A DNA stretch of 6,439 nucleotides from a virus (lineage: Duplodnaviria > Heunggongvirae > Uroviricota > Caudoviricetes): the IMG/VR virus record IMGVR_UViG_2695420565_000002. One strand, given 5' to 3'. This document shows, piece by piece, positions 2,351-6,439 of this stretch (the first letter of the stretch is position 1; each line of letters opens with the position of its first letter). The translations under genes were made by a program, and so were the position numbers. The notes beneath the pieces were generated by a model. That model searched no databases. It was not told the DNA's origin and saw only the letters and a list, made by a program, of their open reading frames with translations.

Positions 2351-2548
2351 AGCATTCAAAGCAGAAGGCTTTGGGATTGGATGAATGAGCAGGCTTATGC
2401 TCGACCAATGTATAAACAGCGCTCATGGCAAGCAGTAACCAATCTGCGCCTCAAGACAGCGTCACTGGTAGTGCGGGCGCTCTAACCAGTAAGCCGGGGT
2501 TCAGCGCCGGCCATCCAATCACCAAAGCTAACTGACAGGAGAATCCAG

Positions 2549-2881
2549 ATGGATGCACAAACACGCCGCCGCGAACGTCGCGCAGAGAAACAGGCTCAAT
2601 GGAAAGCAGCAAATCCCCTGTTGGTTGGGGTAAGCGCAAAACCAGTTAACCGCCCTATTCTCTCGCTGAATCGCAAACCGAAATCACGAGTAGAAAGCGC
2701 ACTGAATCCGATAGACCTTACAGTGCTGGCTGAATACCACGAACAGATTGAAAGCAACCTGCAACGTATTGAGCGCAAGAATCAGCGCACATGGTACAGC
2801 AAGCCACGCAGTGAAATGGGTGTGACCTGTTCAGGCCGCCAGAAGCAACGCGGAAAATCAATTCCAGCTTATTACGATTGA
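2549..2881 (+). CDS. N: Antitermination protein N
   Basis: 110 aa beginning MDAQTRRRERRAEKQAQWKAANPLLVGVSAKPVNRPILSLNRKPKSRVESALNPIDLTVLAEYH, matching lambda N from memory, including the arginine-rich boxB-binding motif; AGGAG SD; downstream of nutL. Confidence 0.95.
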   Translation: MDAQTRRRERRAEKQAQWKAANPLLVGVSAKPVNRPILSLNRKPKSRVESALNPIDLTVLAEYHEQIESNLQRIERKNQRTWYSKPRSEMGVTCSGRQKQRGKSIPAYYD

Positions 2882-2888
2882 GGTGGTC

Positions 2889-3026
2889 ATGCTCAAGAAA
2901 ATCAAACGCCGACTTTACAAAGAAGGTAGATATTCATGCCAATTGCCAAAATGCGACACAACAAAATGGAGTGTCGATGATTGGTGTAACTGGATAGATA
3001 GATACGGAACTTGGTGGGATAAATAA
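2889..3026 (+). CDS. Hypothetical small Cys/Trp-rich protein (45 aa)
   Basis: ATG 2889 with GAGGTG just upstream overlapping the N stop; MLKKIKRRLYKEGRYSCQLPKCDTTKWSVDDWCNWIDRYGTWWDK; occupies the position where lambda carries sieB. Below the ORF-track length cutoff. Confidence 0.3.
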   Translation: MLKKIKRRLYKEGRYSCQLPKCDTTKWSVDDWCNWIDRYGTWWDK

Positions 3027-3080
3027 CAGGTAACTTAAGCGTATTTACTTTCGCGGCAAACCACATATTTGAGGTGAGAT

Positions 3081-3167
3081 ATGGAAGAAGAATTTGAAGA
3101 GTTCGAAGAGCATCCGCAGGATGTGATGGAACAATACCAGGACTATCCGTATGACTACGACTATTGA
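3081..3167 (+). CDS. Highly acidic 28-aa peptide (lambda orf28 equivalent)
   Basis: GAGGTG SD 4 nt upstream of ATG 3081; MEEEFEEFEEHPQDVMEQYQDYPYDYDY; overlaps the ral start by 17 nt in another frame; same position as lambda orf28 upstream of ral. Confidence 0.55.
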   Translation: MEEEFEEFEEHPQDVMEQYQDYPYDYDY

Positions 3168-3351
3168 TACAAATCAATGGTGTGGACAATTCAAGCGATG
3201 CAATGGATGCAAGCTGCAATCGGAATACATGGTTAAGCCTGAAGAAATGTTTCCTGTAATGGAAGATGGGAAATATGTCGATAAATGGGCAATACGAACG
3301 ACGGCAATGATTGCCAGAGAACTTGGTAAACAGAATAACAAGGCTGCCTGA
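3151..3351 (+). CDS. ral: Restriction alleviation protein Ral
   Basis: 66 aa MTTTIDTNQWCGQFKRCNGCKLQSEYMVKPEEMFPVMEDGKYVDKWAIRTTAMIARELGKQNNKAA, nearly identical to lambda Ral as recalled. Confidence 0.92.
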   Translation: MTTTIDTNQWCGQFKRCNGCKLQSEYMVKPEEMFPVMEDGKYVDKWAIRTTAMIARELGKQNNKAA

Positions 3352-3390
3352 TGGTGGCCTTTATTTTTGGCATAAACAACAGAGGATAAC

Positions 3391-3687
3391 ATGGAATTTA
3401 AAGGTACTGAAGGCAAGTGGGAAATAATGATGGATGGCGATGAGATTAAAATAATCCAGGCAGACTCACTTGAAAATGGCGCAGGCTGGCGTTCGTATAT
3501 TGCAATCTGTGAGGAAGTTCAATGTATTGAAGATGCCAATCTAATAGCGGCAGCACCTGACCTTCTCGAAGCACTTCAGTTATTACTTAAGCAATCCAAA
3601 AATAGAACAACGACAACATATCCAGAATGGTATGGAGCTGTTAATAAAGGTCTTGCAGCAATCAGCAAGGCTCTGGGAGGTGAATGA
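3391..3687 (+). CDS. Hypothetical protein (98 aa), early-left operon
   Basis: AGAGGA SD 4 nt upstream; protein-like composition; stop overlaps the next start (ATGA). No family recognised. Confidence 0.7.
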   Translation: MEFKGTEGKWEIMMDGDEIKIIQADSLENGAGWRSYIAICEEVQCIEDANLIAAAPDLLEALQLLLKQSKNRTTTTYPEWYGAVNKGLAAISKALGGE

Positions 3688-3887
3688 TGTGCGAGTTTTA
3701 TGAAGCAGATATCAAACGCCCAGAAATGGCAAGTGATGCGACATTACGTGATTACTTCGCGGCAAAGGCTATGCAAGCAATGATTAGCAATCCATCGATT
3801 ATCGATAATGATTCTGATGGAGTTGTTAATTATGCAGCAAGCGCTGCATATAAGTTTGCAGACGCAATGCTCAAAGCTCGCGAATAA
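3684..3887 (+). CDS. Hypothetical protein (67 aa; 66 aa if starting at ATG 3687)
   Basis: GGGAGG SD at 3675..3680; ATGA overlap with the upstream gene; MMCEFYEADIKRPEMASDATLRDYFAAKAMQAM...; no family recognised. Confidence 0.65.
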   Translation: MMCEFYEADIKRPEMASDATLRDYFAAKAMQAMISNPSIIDNDSDGVVNYAASAAYKFADAMLKARE

Positions 3888-3892
3888 GCACT

Positions 3893-3920
3893 GTGTATTC
3901 ATTCCAACGAGTGAATACAC
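3893..3920 (+). other. Strong RNA hairpin without U-tract (12-bp stem GTGTATTCATTC / GAGTGAATACAC, loop CAAC)
   Basis: Stem seen directly in sequence, 5 nt after the stop of the 67-aa gene; not followed by a T-run, so not a typical intrinsic terminator. Confidence 0.5.
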
Positions 3921-3982
3921 GGAGCAATGTCGCTCGTAACTAAACAGGAGCCGACTTGTTCTGATTATTGGAAATCTTCTTT

Positions 3983-4010
3983 GCCCTCCGATGTGGGGGG
4001 CCTTTTTATA
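3983..4010 (+). terminator. Rho-independent terminator within the early-left operon, upstream of the cIII-like gene
   Basis: GCCCTCC-gatgt-GGGGGGC (7 bp, one G-U) followed by CTTTTTATA. Confidence 0.6.
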
Positions 4011-4073
4011 TGCATACCAATAACGCTTCACTCGAGGCGTTTTCGTTATGCAATCAAACAGAAGGAGCATCCT

Positions 4074-4244
4074 ATGCAACAGTTCGCTATTGCAGGGGCG
4101 GCATCGGTTCGCCCTTTCAACCCGATTTTATCGGTACAGCATTCACGAAAAAACATTTTAACCGGAGCAGACTTTAAACAACCAAGAATGAAAAGTTTGC
4201 TCGAAAAGCTTTGGGATATTTTGAAACAACAAGGCCGTCCATGA
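4074..4244 (+). CDS. CIII-like protein (56 aa), putative FtsH/HflB inhibitor
   Basis: GAAGGAG SD 6 nt upstream of ATG 4074; N-terminus MQQFAIAG and C-terminus SLLEKLWDILKQQGRP resemble lambda CIII (MQYAIAG...RLIDILNQPGVP, recalled); the central region differs. The longer track ORF from 3927 would span the terminator and is not used. Confidence 0.5.
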   Translation: MQQFAIAGAASVRPFNPILSVQHSRKNILTGADFKQPRMKSLLEKLWDILKQQGRP

Positions 4245-4411
4245 GTTTTACAGATAACTGGTCAGACGAAGAATTCATTCGTCAGATGAAAGAATTAATC
4301 GGTAACGAAGGAGATATTCATGTCACTTGCAACCACAGTGAAGGAGAGCAAGTTACAGAGACGCATGTACACGCAGCAGGCGTTAATGTATCGCCAGAAG
4401 GGAGATCGTGA
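4241..4411 (+). CDS. Hypothetical small acidic protein (56 aa), start overlaps cIII-like stop (ATGA)
   Basis: MSFTDNWSDEEFIRQMKELIGNEGDIH...; weak SD; C-terminal half looks less protein-like; overlaps an alternative-frame ORF with a much better SD. Confidence 0.4.
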   Translation: MSFTDNWSDEEFIRQMKELIGNEGDIHVTCNHSEGEQVTETHVHAAGVNVSPEGRS

Positions 4412-4490
4412 AGGTGTTCGCGTATTTTTAAATGCGGCAAAGACTGAAGTATTAAATCAGCGTTATTTCCTTGGGCCATGTCCATTCTGA
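4320..4490 (+). CDS. Hypothetical small protein (56 aa) in alternative frame, not in the ORF track
   Basis: AAGGAG SD at 4308..4313, 6-nt spacer, ATG 4320; MSLATTVKESKLQRRMYTQQALMYRQKGDREGVRVFLNAAKTEVLNQRYFLGPCPF; ends 8 nt before the SSAP start. Sits where lambda has kil/gam. Confidence 0.45.
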   Translation: MSLATTVKESKLQRRMYTQQALMYRQKGDREGVRVFLNAAKTEVLNQRYFLGPCPF

Positions 4491-4498
4491 GGTGAATT

Positions 4499-5206
4499 AT
4501 GGATTTGAATAAATTCGATGAGCCATTCAGCCCTGAAGATATCGAATGGCGAATACAGCAAAGCGGTAAAACACGCGATGGCAAAGTGTGGGCTATGGTG
4601 CTGGCTTATGTCACGAACCGGGCAATCATGAAACGCCTGGACGATGTTTGCGGCAAAGCAGGATGGCGCAATGAATACCGCGATATTCCCAACAACGGCG
4701 GCGTTGAATGCGGCATATCGATAAAGATTGATTCCGAATGGGTAACCAAATGGGATGCTGCTGAAAACACGCAGGTAGAAGCCGTCAAAGGTGGTCGTTC
4801 CGGTGCAATGAAGCGCGCTGCCGTTCAGTGGGGAATCGGTCGGTATCTGTATAACCTTGAGGAAGGTTTCGCACAAACATCTCTCGATAAAAAGCAGGGG
4901 TGGCACAGGGCAAAACTGAAGGATGGAACAGGATTTTACTGGCTACCTCCATCGCTGCCGGGATGGGCAATCCCAGCATCAGATAACAAACCATCACCAG
5001 AAAATACCAACCAGAAATCTCCATCGGTTGACTGCGAACAAATCCTGAAAGACTTCAGCGATTATGCATCAACAGAAACTGACAAGAAAAAACTCATAGA
5101 ACGTTATCAGCATGACTGGCAATTAATGGCTGGCAATGAGGATGCGCAGGCTAAATGCGTTCAGGTAATGAACATCAGAGTTAACGAACTAAAACAGGCG
5201 GCATAA
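4499..5206 (+). CDS. Rad52/Sak-type single-strand annealing protein (phage recombinase)
   Basis: 235 aa; motifs AYVTNRAIMKRLDDVCGKAGWRNEY and GAMKRAAVQWGIGRYLYNL match the Rad52-superfamily signature (ALKRxxxxFGIGRYLY) as I recall it; immediately followed by ssb. Confidence 0.8.
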   Translation: MDLNKFDEPFSPEDIEWRIQQSGKTRDGKVWAMVLAYVTNRAIMKRLDDVCGKAGWRNEYRDIPNNGGVECGISIKIDSEWVTKWDAAENTQVEAVKGGRSGAMKRAAVQWGIGRYLYNLEEGFAQTSLDKKQGWHRAKLKDGTGFYWLPPSLPGWAIPASDNKPSPENTNQKSPSVDCEQILKDFSDYASTETDKKKLIERYQHDWQLMAGNEDAQAKCVQVMNIRVNELKQAA

Positions 5207-5713
5207 ATGGCAAGCAGAGGCGTAAATAAGGTGATTATCCTTGGTCGGGTAGGACAAGACCCGGAAGTTCGATACTCACCATCAGGAACAGCGTTCGCTA
5301 ACCTGACAATAGCCACGTCAGAACAATGGCGAGATAAAAATACTGGCGAGCAAAAGGAATTGACTGAATGGCATCGTGTTGCTGTATCCGGGAAACTGGC
5401 TGAGGTCGTGGGGCAGTATGTGAAAAAAGGTGATCAGATTTATTTCGAGGGAATGCTGAGAACCAGAAAGTGGAAAGACCAGTCAGGGCAAGACCGTTAC
5501 ACAACCGAGGTTCATGTCGGAATTAATGGCGTGATGCAAATGCTTGGCGGCATTGGCGACAGCAAACAACAAGCAGCCAGCAGGCAATCACAGAAGCCAC
5601 AGCAGCAATCATCACCAGCACAACACAACGAACCTCCGATGGATTTTGACGACGATATACCCTTTGCACCAGTAACTCTCCCCTTCCCTCGTCACGCTAT
5701 TCACGCAATTTAA
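5207..5713 (+). CDS. ssb: Single-stranded DNA-binding protein SSB, with C-terminal extension beyond the DDDIPF motif
   Basis: N-terminal OB-fold region [23 protein letters not shown]...[15 protein letters not shown]...[19 protein letters not shown] closely parallels E. coli SSB; Gln/Pro-rich linker; [10 protein letters not shown] is followed by 15 more residues ([15 protein letters not shown]) before the stop. Confidence 0.93.
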
Positions 5714-5726
5714 TCAGGAGAAAATC

Positions 5727-6023
5727 ATGCCAGCGCCTCTGTATGGTGCGGATGACCCGCGCCGCTGTTCCGGCAATTCCGTATCGGAGGTGCTGGATAA
5801 ATTCAGAAAAAACTACGATCGGATAATGTCTCTACCGCAGGAAACGAAAGATGAAAAGGAATTTCGCCATTGTATATGGCTTGCAGAGAAAGAAGAACGA
5901 GAGCGAATTTACCAGACATCAATCCGACCATTCCGCAAAGCCACATATACCCACTTCCCTGAATATATCGACCCGCGCCTGCGTAATTACCGCTCACGCT
6001 ATGGCGCTATCAGTAATGACTGA
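5727..6023 (+). CDS. Hypothetical protein (98 aa)
   Basis: AGGAG SD 6 nt upstream of ATG 5727; basic, protein-like composition; no family recognised. Confidence 0.6.
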
Positions 6024-6033
6024 GGAATTTACC

Positions 6034-6198
6034 ATGAGAGGACTTGCATACAATCCCGGCATTCTTCCGGCAGAAATGATTATTCGCCAACGCGTAAAGC
6101 CAATGCCATCGAGAGAGGAATTGCTTAAGAGAAATAGTTTCTGTTCTGTTAATGACAACAAATATCTGAATGCAATGTGGCGGAGTGGGAAAAAATGA
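6034..6198 (+). CDS. Hypothetical small protein (54 aa)
   Basis: TGAGGAA SD 6 nt upstream of ATG 6034; the track's longer ORF (5851..6198) overlaps the upstream gene and lacks an SD at its start. Confidence 0.45.
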
Positions 6199-6320
6199 CA
6201 ATCACAAAACAACGTGTAGAAGAAATCATATCCCGCATTGAAATGTATGGGCATGGTGCAGGGTATACCGCTGACGAGGTTTATGACCTGGCTGTACTGG
6301 CGCTGAATTTATCAAATTGA
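6195..6320 (+). CDS. Hypothetical small protein (41 aa), possibly a gene fragment terminated by the IS terminal TGA
   Basis: ATG 6195 overlaps the upstream stop (ATGA); [41 protein letters not shown]; its stop TGA 6318..6320 coincides with the first three bases of the IS inverted repeat. Confidence 0.4.
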
Positions 6321-6439
6321 GGTAGCCTGAGTTTAACGGACACTCCTTCCTGAAATAGAATGGCATCAGAAGGAGCTAATAATGAGCAGAAAAACCCAAC
6401 GTTACTCTAAAGAGTTCAAAGCCGAAGCTGTCAGAACGG
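6318..6439 (+). mobile_element. Left end of a second IS3-family insertion sequence (IS600-like), partial; continues beyond window end
   Basis: TGAGGTAGCCTGAGTTTAACGGACACTCC... terminal repeat starting with TGA, then AAGGAG SD and orfA start MSRKTQRYSKEFKAEAVRT. The SxEFKxEAV motif is typical of IS3-family OrfA HTH proteins; the IS600 assignment is from memory. Confidence 0.7.
6382..6439 (+). CDS. IS3-family transposase OrfA, N-terminal 19 codons (partial)
   Basis: ATG 6382, AAGGAG SD with 6-nt spacer; MSRKTQRYSKEFKAEAVRT. Confidence 0.7.
   Translation, partial: MSRKTQRYSKEFKAEAVRT

Follow-up and report, generated by a model that had tools for sequence, protein, structure and literature searches.

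A conserved peptide behind the internal acidic tip of a phage single-stranded DNA-binding protein, and an HNH gene insertion site at its edge

The SSB, or single-stranded DNA-binding protein, encoded on a 6,439-nucleotide stretch of Caudoviricetes DNA (IMG/VR record IMGVR_UViG_2695420565_000002; the whole stretch is here called the window) does not end at its acidic tip. The frame of the ssb gene continues for 15 codons after the Phe codon of the tip motif DDDIPF, and the 15 residues that they encode recur on related SSBs and on unrelated protein bodies. The reading favored here, with a probability of roughly 0.55, treats these residues as a conserved peptide module, made portable by recombination, that Enterobacterales phages (temperate ones and some that are lytic) carry at protein C-termini and that would cap the tip and dock elsewhere. 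The extension is real and widespread. It is a variant of the peptide through which SSBs interact at their C-terminus, its function is inferred, and a polymorphism for a putative homing endonuclease goes with it.

By the textbook account, it is the SSB tip, ending in a free Phe carboxylate, that organizes the enzymes of replication, repair and recombination on single-stranded DNA (ssDNA). Here, a large natural family keeps a tip identical to that of the host but buries it under a conserved peptide, and the same peptide is found on other SSB types and on a helicase. This points to a new binding mode or partner, or to a natural off-switch for the tip. It bears on how temperate phages protect their recombination intermediates, on the choice of cognate pairs of SSB and single-strand annealing protein (SSAP) for recombineering tools, and on the possible evasion of defense systems that sense the tip.

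An internal tip followed by a conserved extension

The features of the ssb gene and its product (aa, amino acid residues) are as follows.

5207..5713, + strand: ssb, 168 codons followed by TAA (open reading frame (ORF) list; Pfam SSB; phrog_44, E = 1.6e-66)
5222..5518, + strand: OB-fold ssDNA-binding domain, aa 6-104 (Pfam PF00436; AlphaFold2 (AF2) model)
5546..5632, + strand: Gln/Pro/Ser-rich disordered linker, aa 114-142 (low predicted local distance difference test (pLDDT) scores in AF2; poorly conserved columns)
5633..5665, + strand: acidic tip, aa 143-153, 11 residues identical to the host tip, internal here (sequence identity; selection on the tip)
5642-5665, + strand: DFDDDIPF, aa 146-153 (ORF translation)
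5665..5666, + strand: Phe/Ala codon boundary, insertion site of HNH cassettes, empty here (DNA alignment, census)
5666-5710, + strand: 15-codon extension (ORF; conservation and selection; other protein bodies)
5711-5713, + strand: ssb stop codon TAA (sequence)

The original prediction, made from the letters of the window, had noticed the internal DDDIPF with 15 further residues behind it; its coordinates and sequence proved exact (ORF 5207-5713). In most respects the product is a bacterial-type SSB. It has an N-terminal OB fold, matched by the Pfam SSB family over residues 6-104 (PF00436, E = 1.6e-36) and modeled by AF2 as a β-barrel (strands E8-113, pLDDT 76-88), and a disordered linker that leads to D-D-D-I-P-F. 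What it lacks is an extreme C-terminal tip with a free Phe α-carboxylate, as 15 codons come after the Phe codon. Linker, tip and extension (residues 114-168) are predicted to be disordered, with pLDDT values of ~30-43 in the AF2 monomer built on a 108-sequence alignment. Thirteen residues at the tip match the C-terminus of solved enterobacterial SSBs (1eqq, 7f2n) in a PDB sequence search. With a 28-mer as the query, this search returned the canonical 13 residues only, and the extension is absent from the solved structures.

Comparison with related SSBs, which the original prediction had proposed as a check, shows that the extension is conserved. The 120 SSB clusters nearest to it are 66-93% identical and span E. 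coli, Salmonella, Klebsiella, Citrobacter, Enterobacter, Kluyvera, Phytobacter and Pluralibacter; in about 108 of them, D-D-[DE]-[IV]-P-F is followed by a 15-residue extension. The family consensus is [AS]-P-[VI]-[TG]-L-x-[FY]-x-[RKS]-H-x-[IV]-[HYN]-x-[ILV], with conservative substitutions throughout (A/S, V/I, T/G, F/Y, R/K/S, H/Y, I/L/V). In the alignment of 108 sequences, P152, F153, P155 and L158 are invariant and V156, T157, P159, F160, P161, R162, H163, I165 and I168 are conserved to at least 90%, on SSB bodies of 67-90% identity; the linker preceding the tip shows almost no conservation.

The module IPF-[AS]P[VI][TG]Lx[FY]x[RKS]Hx[IV][HYN]x[ILV]-COOH is under purifying selection. The ratio of nonsynonymous to synonymous proportions (pN/pS, given throughout as crude Nei-Gojobori proportions uncorrected for relatedness and recombination) is 0.23 for the tail, with 3-8 different codons per position, in DNA collected by degenerate-pattern scans. 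Positions that lay outside the search pattern are kept as well: Ile+12 in 37 of 37 sequences, and Pro+6 and Pro+8 in 36 of 37 each. When loci were instead chosen by their SSB body and tip, pN/pS was 0.31 for the tail, 0.25 for the OB domain and 0.03 for the tip. The 80 loci of that sample comprise 32 with the standard extension, ~6 with variant extensions, 8 with a canonical SSB and an HNH-plus-tail gene downstream, and 33 with a plain canonical SSB, mostly of more distant types. Over the samples, the pN/pS of the tip is 0.03-0.06, even though the tip is internal.

The extension is also common. The window ssb allele is the most frequent one in IMG/VR (33 of 96), and the gene is found at 99.4-100% DNA identity in the phages HK75, mEp235 and mEpX2. 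The same tail is present on ssb genes of 89% DNA identity in the Salmonella phages epsilon34, g341c and NM-3 and of ~74% in ECP1, HZ41 and CP-1639. Of 5,426 complete E. coli genomes, 297 (~5%) match an 84-nt probe across the junction over at least 80% of its length. In a census of 128 occurrences of the 45 nt that encode the extension, drawn from IMG/VR contigs and other fetched loci, this 45-mer was fused after ...IPF-Ala in 96 and formed the end of an HNH gene in 32, and there was no third context.

The original prediction had offered two readings of the extra residues, the loss of a stop codon as a prophage decays and a real variant. Protein-level conservation, on SSBs and on unrelated bodies, supports the second and speaks against the first. 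According to the lost-stop explanation, which also covers sequencing error and pseudogenization, the frame simply runs into the spacer up to the next TAA. An IS600 element is inserted ~590 bp downstream of ssb, and a run of 15 open codons after a lost stop has a chance probability of ~0.49, or (61/64)^15, so that the length of the run is unremarkable in itself. It is the fixed length, the conservation and the synonymous variation together that take the extension beyond chance. Moreover, the conserved extension varies synonymously in SSBs that are 66-75% identical, and the 45-mer was a non-coding spacer after a stop codon in none of the 128 occurrences. The identical allele recurs in viable, plaque-forming phages and in the 297 E. 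coli genomes, which speaks against the sequencing error that had been raised. A lost stop is thus extremely unlikely.

A programmed frameshift that would yield a canonical isoform was also considered and rejected. There is a TAA in the +1 frame three codons past the Phe, but the preceding Pro codon varies (CCC, CCA, CCT) and there is no slippery heptamer.

The module on other protein bodies

When one genome from each of 185,579 species was scanned with a degenerate pattern, 19 matches resulted, of which 18 are real and one, in Thermoplasmata, is spurious. Seventeen of the 18 are in Enterobacterales (Enterobacteriaceae, Erwiniaceae and Morganellaceae), and carriers include Providencia, Pantoea, Buttiauxella, Kluyvera and Enterobacter. 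The 18th is a record titled Chryseobacterium sp. 18061 (CACSKA010000001.1, L148), a 799-kb contig with an enterobacterial-type prophage Rec module and an extended SSB; this assembly is probably mislabeled or contaminated.

The proteins found to carry the module comprise at least five SSB bodies and one gp4-like primase/helicase:

Window-type SSB
Long host-like SSB of Enterobacter, 192 aa
SSB of ~153 residues of the MAINxITxSGNVGKD type (Pfam SSB, E ~1e-18)
SSB of 243 residues, phrog_743 (no Pfam match)
Further SSB, L204 (second viral scan)
gp4-like DNA primase/helicase of 691 residues, phrog_239, Pfam DnaB_C (second viral scan; L173, 374-2449; L253, 8796-10871)

The primase/helicase ends in ...GPDDDTPF-APIGLQYAKHAIYVI. 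In L173, an HNH gene (2506-3015) lies downstream of it, and the Pol A gene is in two ORFs (3012-5051 and 5748-6443) that are split by another HNH gene (5182-5631).

A set of Providencia-type alleles relaxes the acidic residues (DDPIPF, DEPIPF, DGNIPF) while IPF-AP[IV]GL stays fixed, which suggests that IPF would be part of the core of a longer motif and not simply a buried canonical tip. As AF2 predicts the tail of the window SSB to be disordered, the module looks like a portable short linear motif.

The genes around extended SSBs vary from locus to locus. They may encode Rad52-like, RecE/RecT-like or Sak4-like proteins, or a DnaQ-like exonuclease together with a methyltransferase, and no phage partner gene co-occurs in all the loci compared. 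This means that no single phage partner goes with the module. In epsilon34-type phages, an ssb with the extension, or an HNH gene, is separated from abc2, the gene for anti-RecBCD protein 2, by a gene for a DnaQ-like 3'-5' exonuclease (L004, 2016-2564; L009; L006, 2554-3102). This indicates that the tail travels with ssb and not with abc2.

These data also bear on whether the 45 nt are kept as DNA, either as a neutral passenger or as a recombination boundary, a homing recognition sequence or a signal for abc2. Many E. coli and Salmonella phages share the 45-mer at 100% identity although the bodies of their ssb genes diverge by 11-26%, the synonymous proportion (pS) of the tail is below that of the body, and the HNH gene inserts at the edge of the 45-mer. 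Across genera, however, the synonymous sites vary freely and the peptide is kept. The position of the epsilon34-type tail, ahead of the exonuclease gene, argues against an abc2 signal, and abc2 of P22, HK97 and HK022 does without the 45-mer. Neither a promoter-like nor a terminator-like site was found in the tail DNA. A role at the DNA level is accordingly unlikely. The 45-mer was also rejected as the 3' end of P22 abc1 or as a module upstream of abc2: P22, HK97, HK022 and HK620 match only from the ribosome-binding site or start codon of abc2.

Two SSBs were examined as possible carriers and dropped: gp40 of HK97 ("SSB-1b") ends in ...DDSNPILI and the SSB of HK620 in NDYPPF. A phmmer search with the last 30 residues against a 50%-representative library returned only 13 short fragments, as extended SSBs cluster under canonical representatives.

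More distant phage SSBs have other, partly unrelated extensions after DDDIPF, such as ...APIGLQYPNLLLCI, ...ARLGLQYPALMRCC, ...FRFAGHPSLMNCI, ...RDTFARGARTAYACS and ...LPVPYLAGI (L317, L340, L342, L343, L354; P0208, P0210). There appears to be a second extension subfamily that ends in L[LM]xC[ICM].

HNH genes at the Phe/Ala boundary

In the phages Sf6, IME10, N7 and Huey, ...IPF is the end of the SSB; after it come a gene for a putative HNH endonuclease of ~155-160 residues, which itself carries the tail, and then abc2. At the junction the window reads ...CCC TTT / GCA CCA GTA... and the HNH gene ...GAC GAG GAA CCA GTA...; from CCA through the stop codon and the ribosome-binding site of abc2 the two are identical. 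One HNH type reads ...PDE-A(GCA)-PVTL, with the junction codon found in fused SSBs. Three HNH types are present at one exact Phe/Ala boundary, and alleles with and without the HNH gene have the same flanks. The Sf6-type HNH gene is found in ~98 complete E. coli genomes.

Upstream of the junction, the window and Huey have no differences from -500 to -29 nt but eight in the last 28 nt, and five of the seven changed codons in this patch are synonymous. The recoded patch, CCTATGAACTTCGACGAT, is common to the Sf6-type and Huey-type HNH alleles, whose HNH proteins are only 47% identical. Homing, with either co-conversion or self-immunity of the target site, usually leaves a patch of this kind.

The first hypothesis for the origin of the tail ran from the HNH gene to ssb. 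It assumed that an HNH gene was formerly situated between ssb and abc2 and that an in-frame deletion, running from the stop codon of ssb to HNH codon -15, would have fused the 3' end of the HNH gene onto ssb; the resulting scar would initially have been meaningless. The tail does equal the last 14 codons of Sf6 gp26 and of the Huey HNH gene, one HNH allele has the GCA (Ala) junction codon, and the flanks are shared between alleles with and without HNH. However, the closest tail-less relatives of Sf6 gp26 (69-86% identical) share its sequence up to ...WHKHNKPIYP[DE][DE] and then have unrelated short ends (...PEGLEVA, ...PEDLKAA, ...PDEPKSA, ...PEDNQANTPSNPDLTQ). The phrog_2340 alignment covers only HNH residues 1-143, and for distant relatives, among them I-KsaII, an intron-encoded homing endonuclease of Staphylococcus phage K, the alignment breaks off near residue 131-133. 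The tail is therefore not native to the HNH family. It is also much older, and far more diverse and widespread, on SSBs than on HNH proteins, whose tails copy the local SSB variants (...PRHAIYAI; APITL...HAL), and the same junction on at least five protein bodies would need repeated identical deletions. In view of the tail-less relatives and the breadth of the extension, a deletion scar was rejected as the origin of the tail; it is very unlikely.

More parsimoniously, ssb would already have had its extension when HNH cassettes entered it at the boundary of the Phe and Ala codons, a history that the patch of changes between the window and Huey supports. Each insertion would supply ssb with a stop codon and thereby recreate an SSB that ends in ...IPF, while the HNH ORF would read into the last 14-15 codons of ssb. 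This would be a clear case of a putative homing endonuclease within a coding sequence that converts one protein isoform into another. The presence of at least four different HNH genes at the ssb-abc2 junction indicates an insertion hotspot.

Several other observations concern this junction. The intact Sf6-type HNH ORF of 159 aa, located between ssb and either abc2 or the exonuclease gene (L005, 2067-2546; L006, 2066-2545; ~98 complete E. coli genomes), goes unannotated by PGAP, so that RefSeq shows an apparent 500-bp gap. In ES18 (L275, 1501-2531), a canonical SSB ending in ...MNFDDEIPF and two stop codons is followed by an unrelated HNH gene (gp47, T7 7.7-like) without the tail. The GenBank entry of Sf6 notes that gp26 shares 14 contiguous residues with "E. 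coli SSB", an observation that was left uninterpreted. Chimeric or decayed products around the ssb junction are seen in P0131, P0134, P0144, P0173, P0180 and P0199. They include SSB-HNH fusions annotated as SSB and fusions of HNH N-termini with the 3'-5' exonuclease; in one protein of 120 aa, an N-terminus of unrelated sequence precedes the final 40 residues of the window-type SSB.

Proposed function of the extension

Canonical SSB partners bind the side chain of the terminal Phe and its free carboxylate. In the window SSB, this carboxylate would be tied up in a peptide bond, and the tip would be excluded from the canonical pocket of chi, ExoI, RecQ and PriA. When one C-terminal Gly was added to E. 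coli SSB, detectable chi binding was lost and complementation was impaired (PMC3045619, Naue et al. 2011). By analogy with this precedent, and because the Phe carboxylate is no longer free, the extension should block canonical docking of the tip, much as the original prediction had expected in suggesting that partner binding may be impaired or altered.

The favored reading goes further, since the extension itself is conserved: tip and extension may together form a single, longer linear motif through which the SSB docks with another partner. Precedents for partner recruitment by phage SSB tips are HK620, whose SSB recruits Sak4, and T7, both compared below. Because the neighboring phage recombination genes differ between loci, the likeliest partner would be a host protein common to Enterobacterales. 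The alternating [VI]-x-L-x-[FY] pattern (i, i+2, i+4) would fit an extended peptide in a hydrophobic groove. The net effect would be that ssDNA coated with the phage SSB recruits other factors than ssDNA coated with the host SSB. The β sliding clamp can be named as a partner with low confidence. Like a clamp-binding motif, the extension has [VI] at position 2, an invariant Leu at 4, [FY] at 6 and a variable position 5, all within a disordered segment.

A number of points weigh against a docking module of this kind. Clamp-binding motifs need a conserved Gln that contacts subsite 2 (PMC3716654); at the corresponding position 1, the extension has an invariant Pro. In the AF2 monomer the tail is disordered and no docking in cis is seen; contacts between molecules are beyond what a monomer model can show. 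Several tail positions were fixed in the patterns of the two degenerate-pattern scans, which biases the samples drawn from them. The pS of the tail (0.40-0.51) is lower than that of the OB domain (0.66-0.82), so that recombinational spread contributes part of the apparent uniformity of the tail. Finally, alleles that stop at ...DDDIPF without an HNH gene occur inside the clade (P0008/P0011-type), with a different spacer and gene downstream, and SSBs that end in ...IPF are found in the same phage backgrounds, including the HNH-carrying Huey and Sf6. The extension is thus dispensable for phage viability and the module exchangeable.

Another explanation, which has a small but real chance of being correct, takes the extension as a C-terminal degron of the ClpX type, ...[RK]HxI[HY]A[IL]-COOH, that would make the phage SSB short-lived and reduce its interference with host replication. 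Tails end in ...RHAIHAI, ...RHAIYVI or ...SHSIYAL, which are no more than resemblances to the ClpX C-motifs reportedly defined by Flynn et al. in 2003 (MuA, ...RRKKAI; ssrA, ...YALAA). The last residue is conserved as aliphatic, the penultimate one is small, basic residues lie upstream and the tail is disordered; the module also occurs on a number of replication proteins whose transience could suit a phage. However, neither the invariant IPF-AP-hydrophobic-x-L-x-aromatic half nor a fixed length of 15 residues would be required for a degron, and the second subfamily ends in ...L[LM]xC[ICM].

Of about the same small probability is the idea that the extension is a cis-acting cap or pro-peptide, which would mask the tip against titration of host partners or against defenses that sense it, and which proteolysis at Phe/Ala might remove when a canonical tip is called for. 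The internal tip is still strongly constrained (pN/pS 0.03-0.06), alleles that end at IPF are viable, and a defense system linked to ExoI can be set off by SSB-like phage proteins whose tip is FDDDIPF (bioRxiv 10.64898/2026.04.29.721553), which gives a possible reason to mask the tip. On the other hand, the AF2 model has no intramolecular docking, masking alone would not conserve 15 specific residues across bodies, and the Providencia-type alleles relax the acidic residues of the tip and keep the IPF-AP core.

A more ambitious form of the docking-module reading is put forward tentatively. IPF and the extension might be a previously unrecognized, portable "capped SSB-Ct" (SSB C-terminus), grafted by enterobacterial phages onto ssDNA-handling proteins so as to send them to a host hub away from the canonical tip pocket, such as the β clamp, invisible to ExoI, RecQ, chi and tip-sensing defenses, and with an HNH homing site at its boundary.

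Gene neighborhood and previous descriptions

The window carries a lambdoid early-left (PL) segment, and its ssb is of the lambdoid Rec-module "SSB-1" type with a C-terminal extension. Other genes in the window are:

1467-2126: cI-like repressor (ORF list, Pfam)
4499..5206, + strand: Rad52/Rad22-family SSAP, directly upstream of ssb (Pfam PF04098, E = 5e-26)
5727..6023, + strand: abc2, anti-RecBCD protein 2 (Pfam PF11043, E = 1.3e-61)

The stop codon of the Rad52/Rad22-family gene overlaps the ssb start codon (TAAATG), and 13 nt, with an AGGAG ribosome-binding site, separate the ssb stop from abc2. At about 6303-6439, the left end of the IS3-family element IS600 and the start of its orfA (MSRKTQRYSKEFKAEAVRT...) interrupt the early-left region of the prophage, ~590 bp downstream of ssb and just past or overlapping the end of a 47-aa ORF (6177-6320). 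This insertion bears no relation to the ssb extension.

The exact tail string had no match in the open-access literature, and earlier mention elsewhere is possible. Within that literature, no description of the extension was found in a survey of lambdoid Rec modules, in the epsilon34 genome paper or in work on SSB C-termini. The survey, from 2025, uses the name SSB-1 for proteins that, in its words, "have not been studied experimentally", and it counts the HNH genes among possible nucleases of the Rec modules (PMC12315714); the epsilon34 paper calls the SSB only "bacterial type".

Comparison with known systems

The closest known relative of the module is the canonical SSB-Ct. The window SSB shares with it the OB fold, the disordered linker and a tip whose 11 residues are identical to those of E. 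coli SSB. However, the canonical form ends with a free Phe carboxylate, whereas the tip of the window SSB is internal and followed by 15 conserved residues.

Phage T7 also has one type of peptide on two replication proteins: its SSB, gp2.5, and its primase-helicase, gp4, both carry acidic C-terminal tails that end in Phe and have gp5 as a common partner. The likeness lies in the same peptide type on an SSB and a primase/helicase, and in L173 the gp4-like gene adjoins a Pol A gene. The T7 tails end at the aromatic residue, however; the module goes on for another 15 residues, and its carriers are mostly temperate phages that lack a polymerase of their own.

The HNH genes resemble free-standing phage HNH homing endonucleases in being present or absent at one site with the same flanks, and in the mostly synonymous changes that adjoin the insertion. 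They differ in that the insertion is inside a coding sequence, supplies a stop codon and yields an endonuclease that ends in codons of its host gene. MobE of Aeromonas phage Aeh1 is reportedly a gene-splitting HNH homing endonuclease.

The engineered E. coli SSB+Gly likewise has a C-terminally extended tip; it is artificial and longer by one residue, whereas the extension described here is natural, 15 residues long, conserved and portable. With clamp-binding motifs (QL[SD]LF, QLVLGL, QLSLPL; PMC3716654), the segment P-[VI]-[TG]-L-x-[FY] shares the hexapeptide-class spacing of hydrophobic, small, Leu, variable and aromatic/aliphatic positions and a place near the C-terminus in a disordered tail, but they have a conserved Gln where the module has Pro, and the module has eight further conserved residues. 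The SSB of HK620, like that of the window, belongs to a lambdoid Rec module, and its extreme C-terminal peptide recruits Sak4 to SSB-coated ssDNA (PMC5928155). That SSB, however, ends in a free terminus, NDYPPF, and serves one cognate SSAP, while the present module is found beside four different sets of recombination genes.

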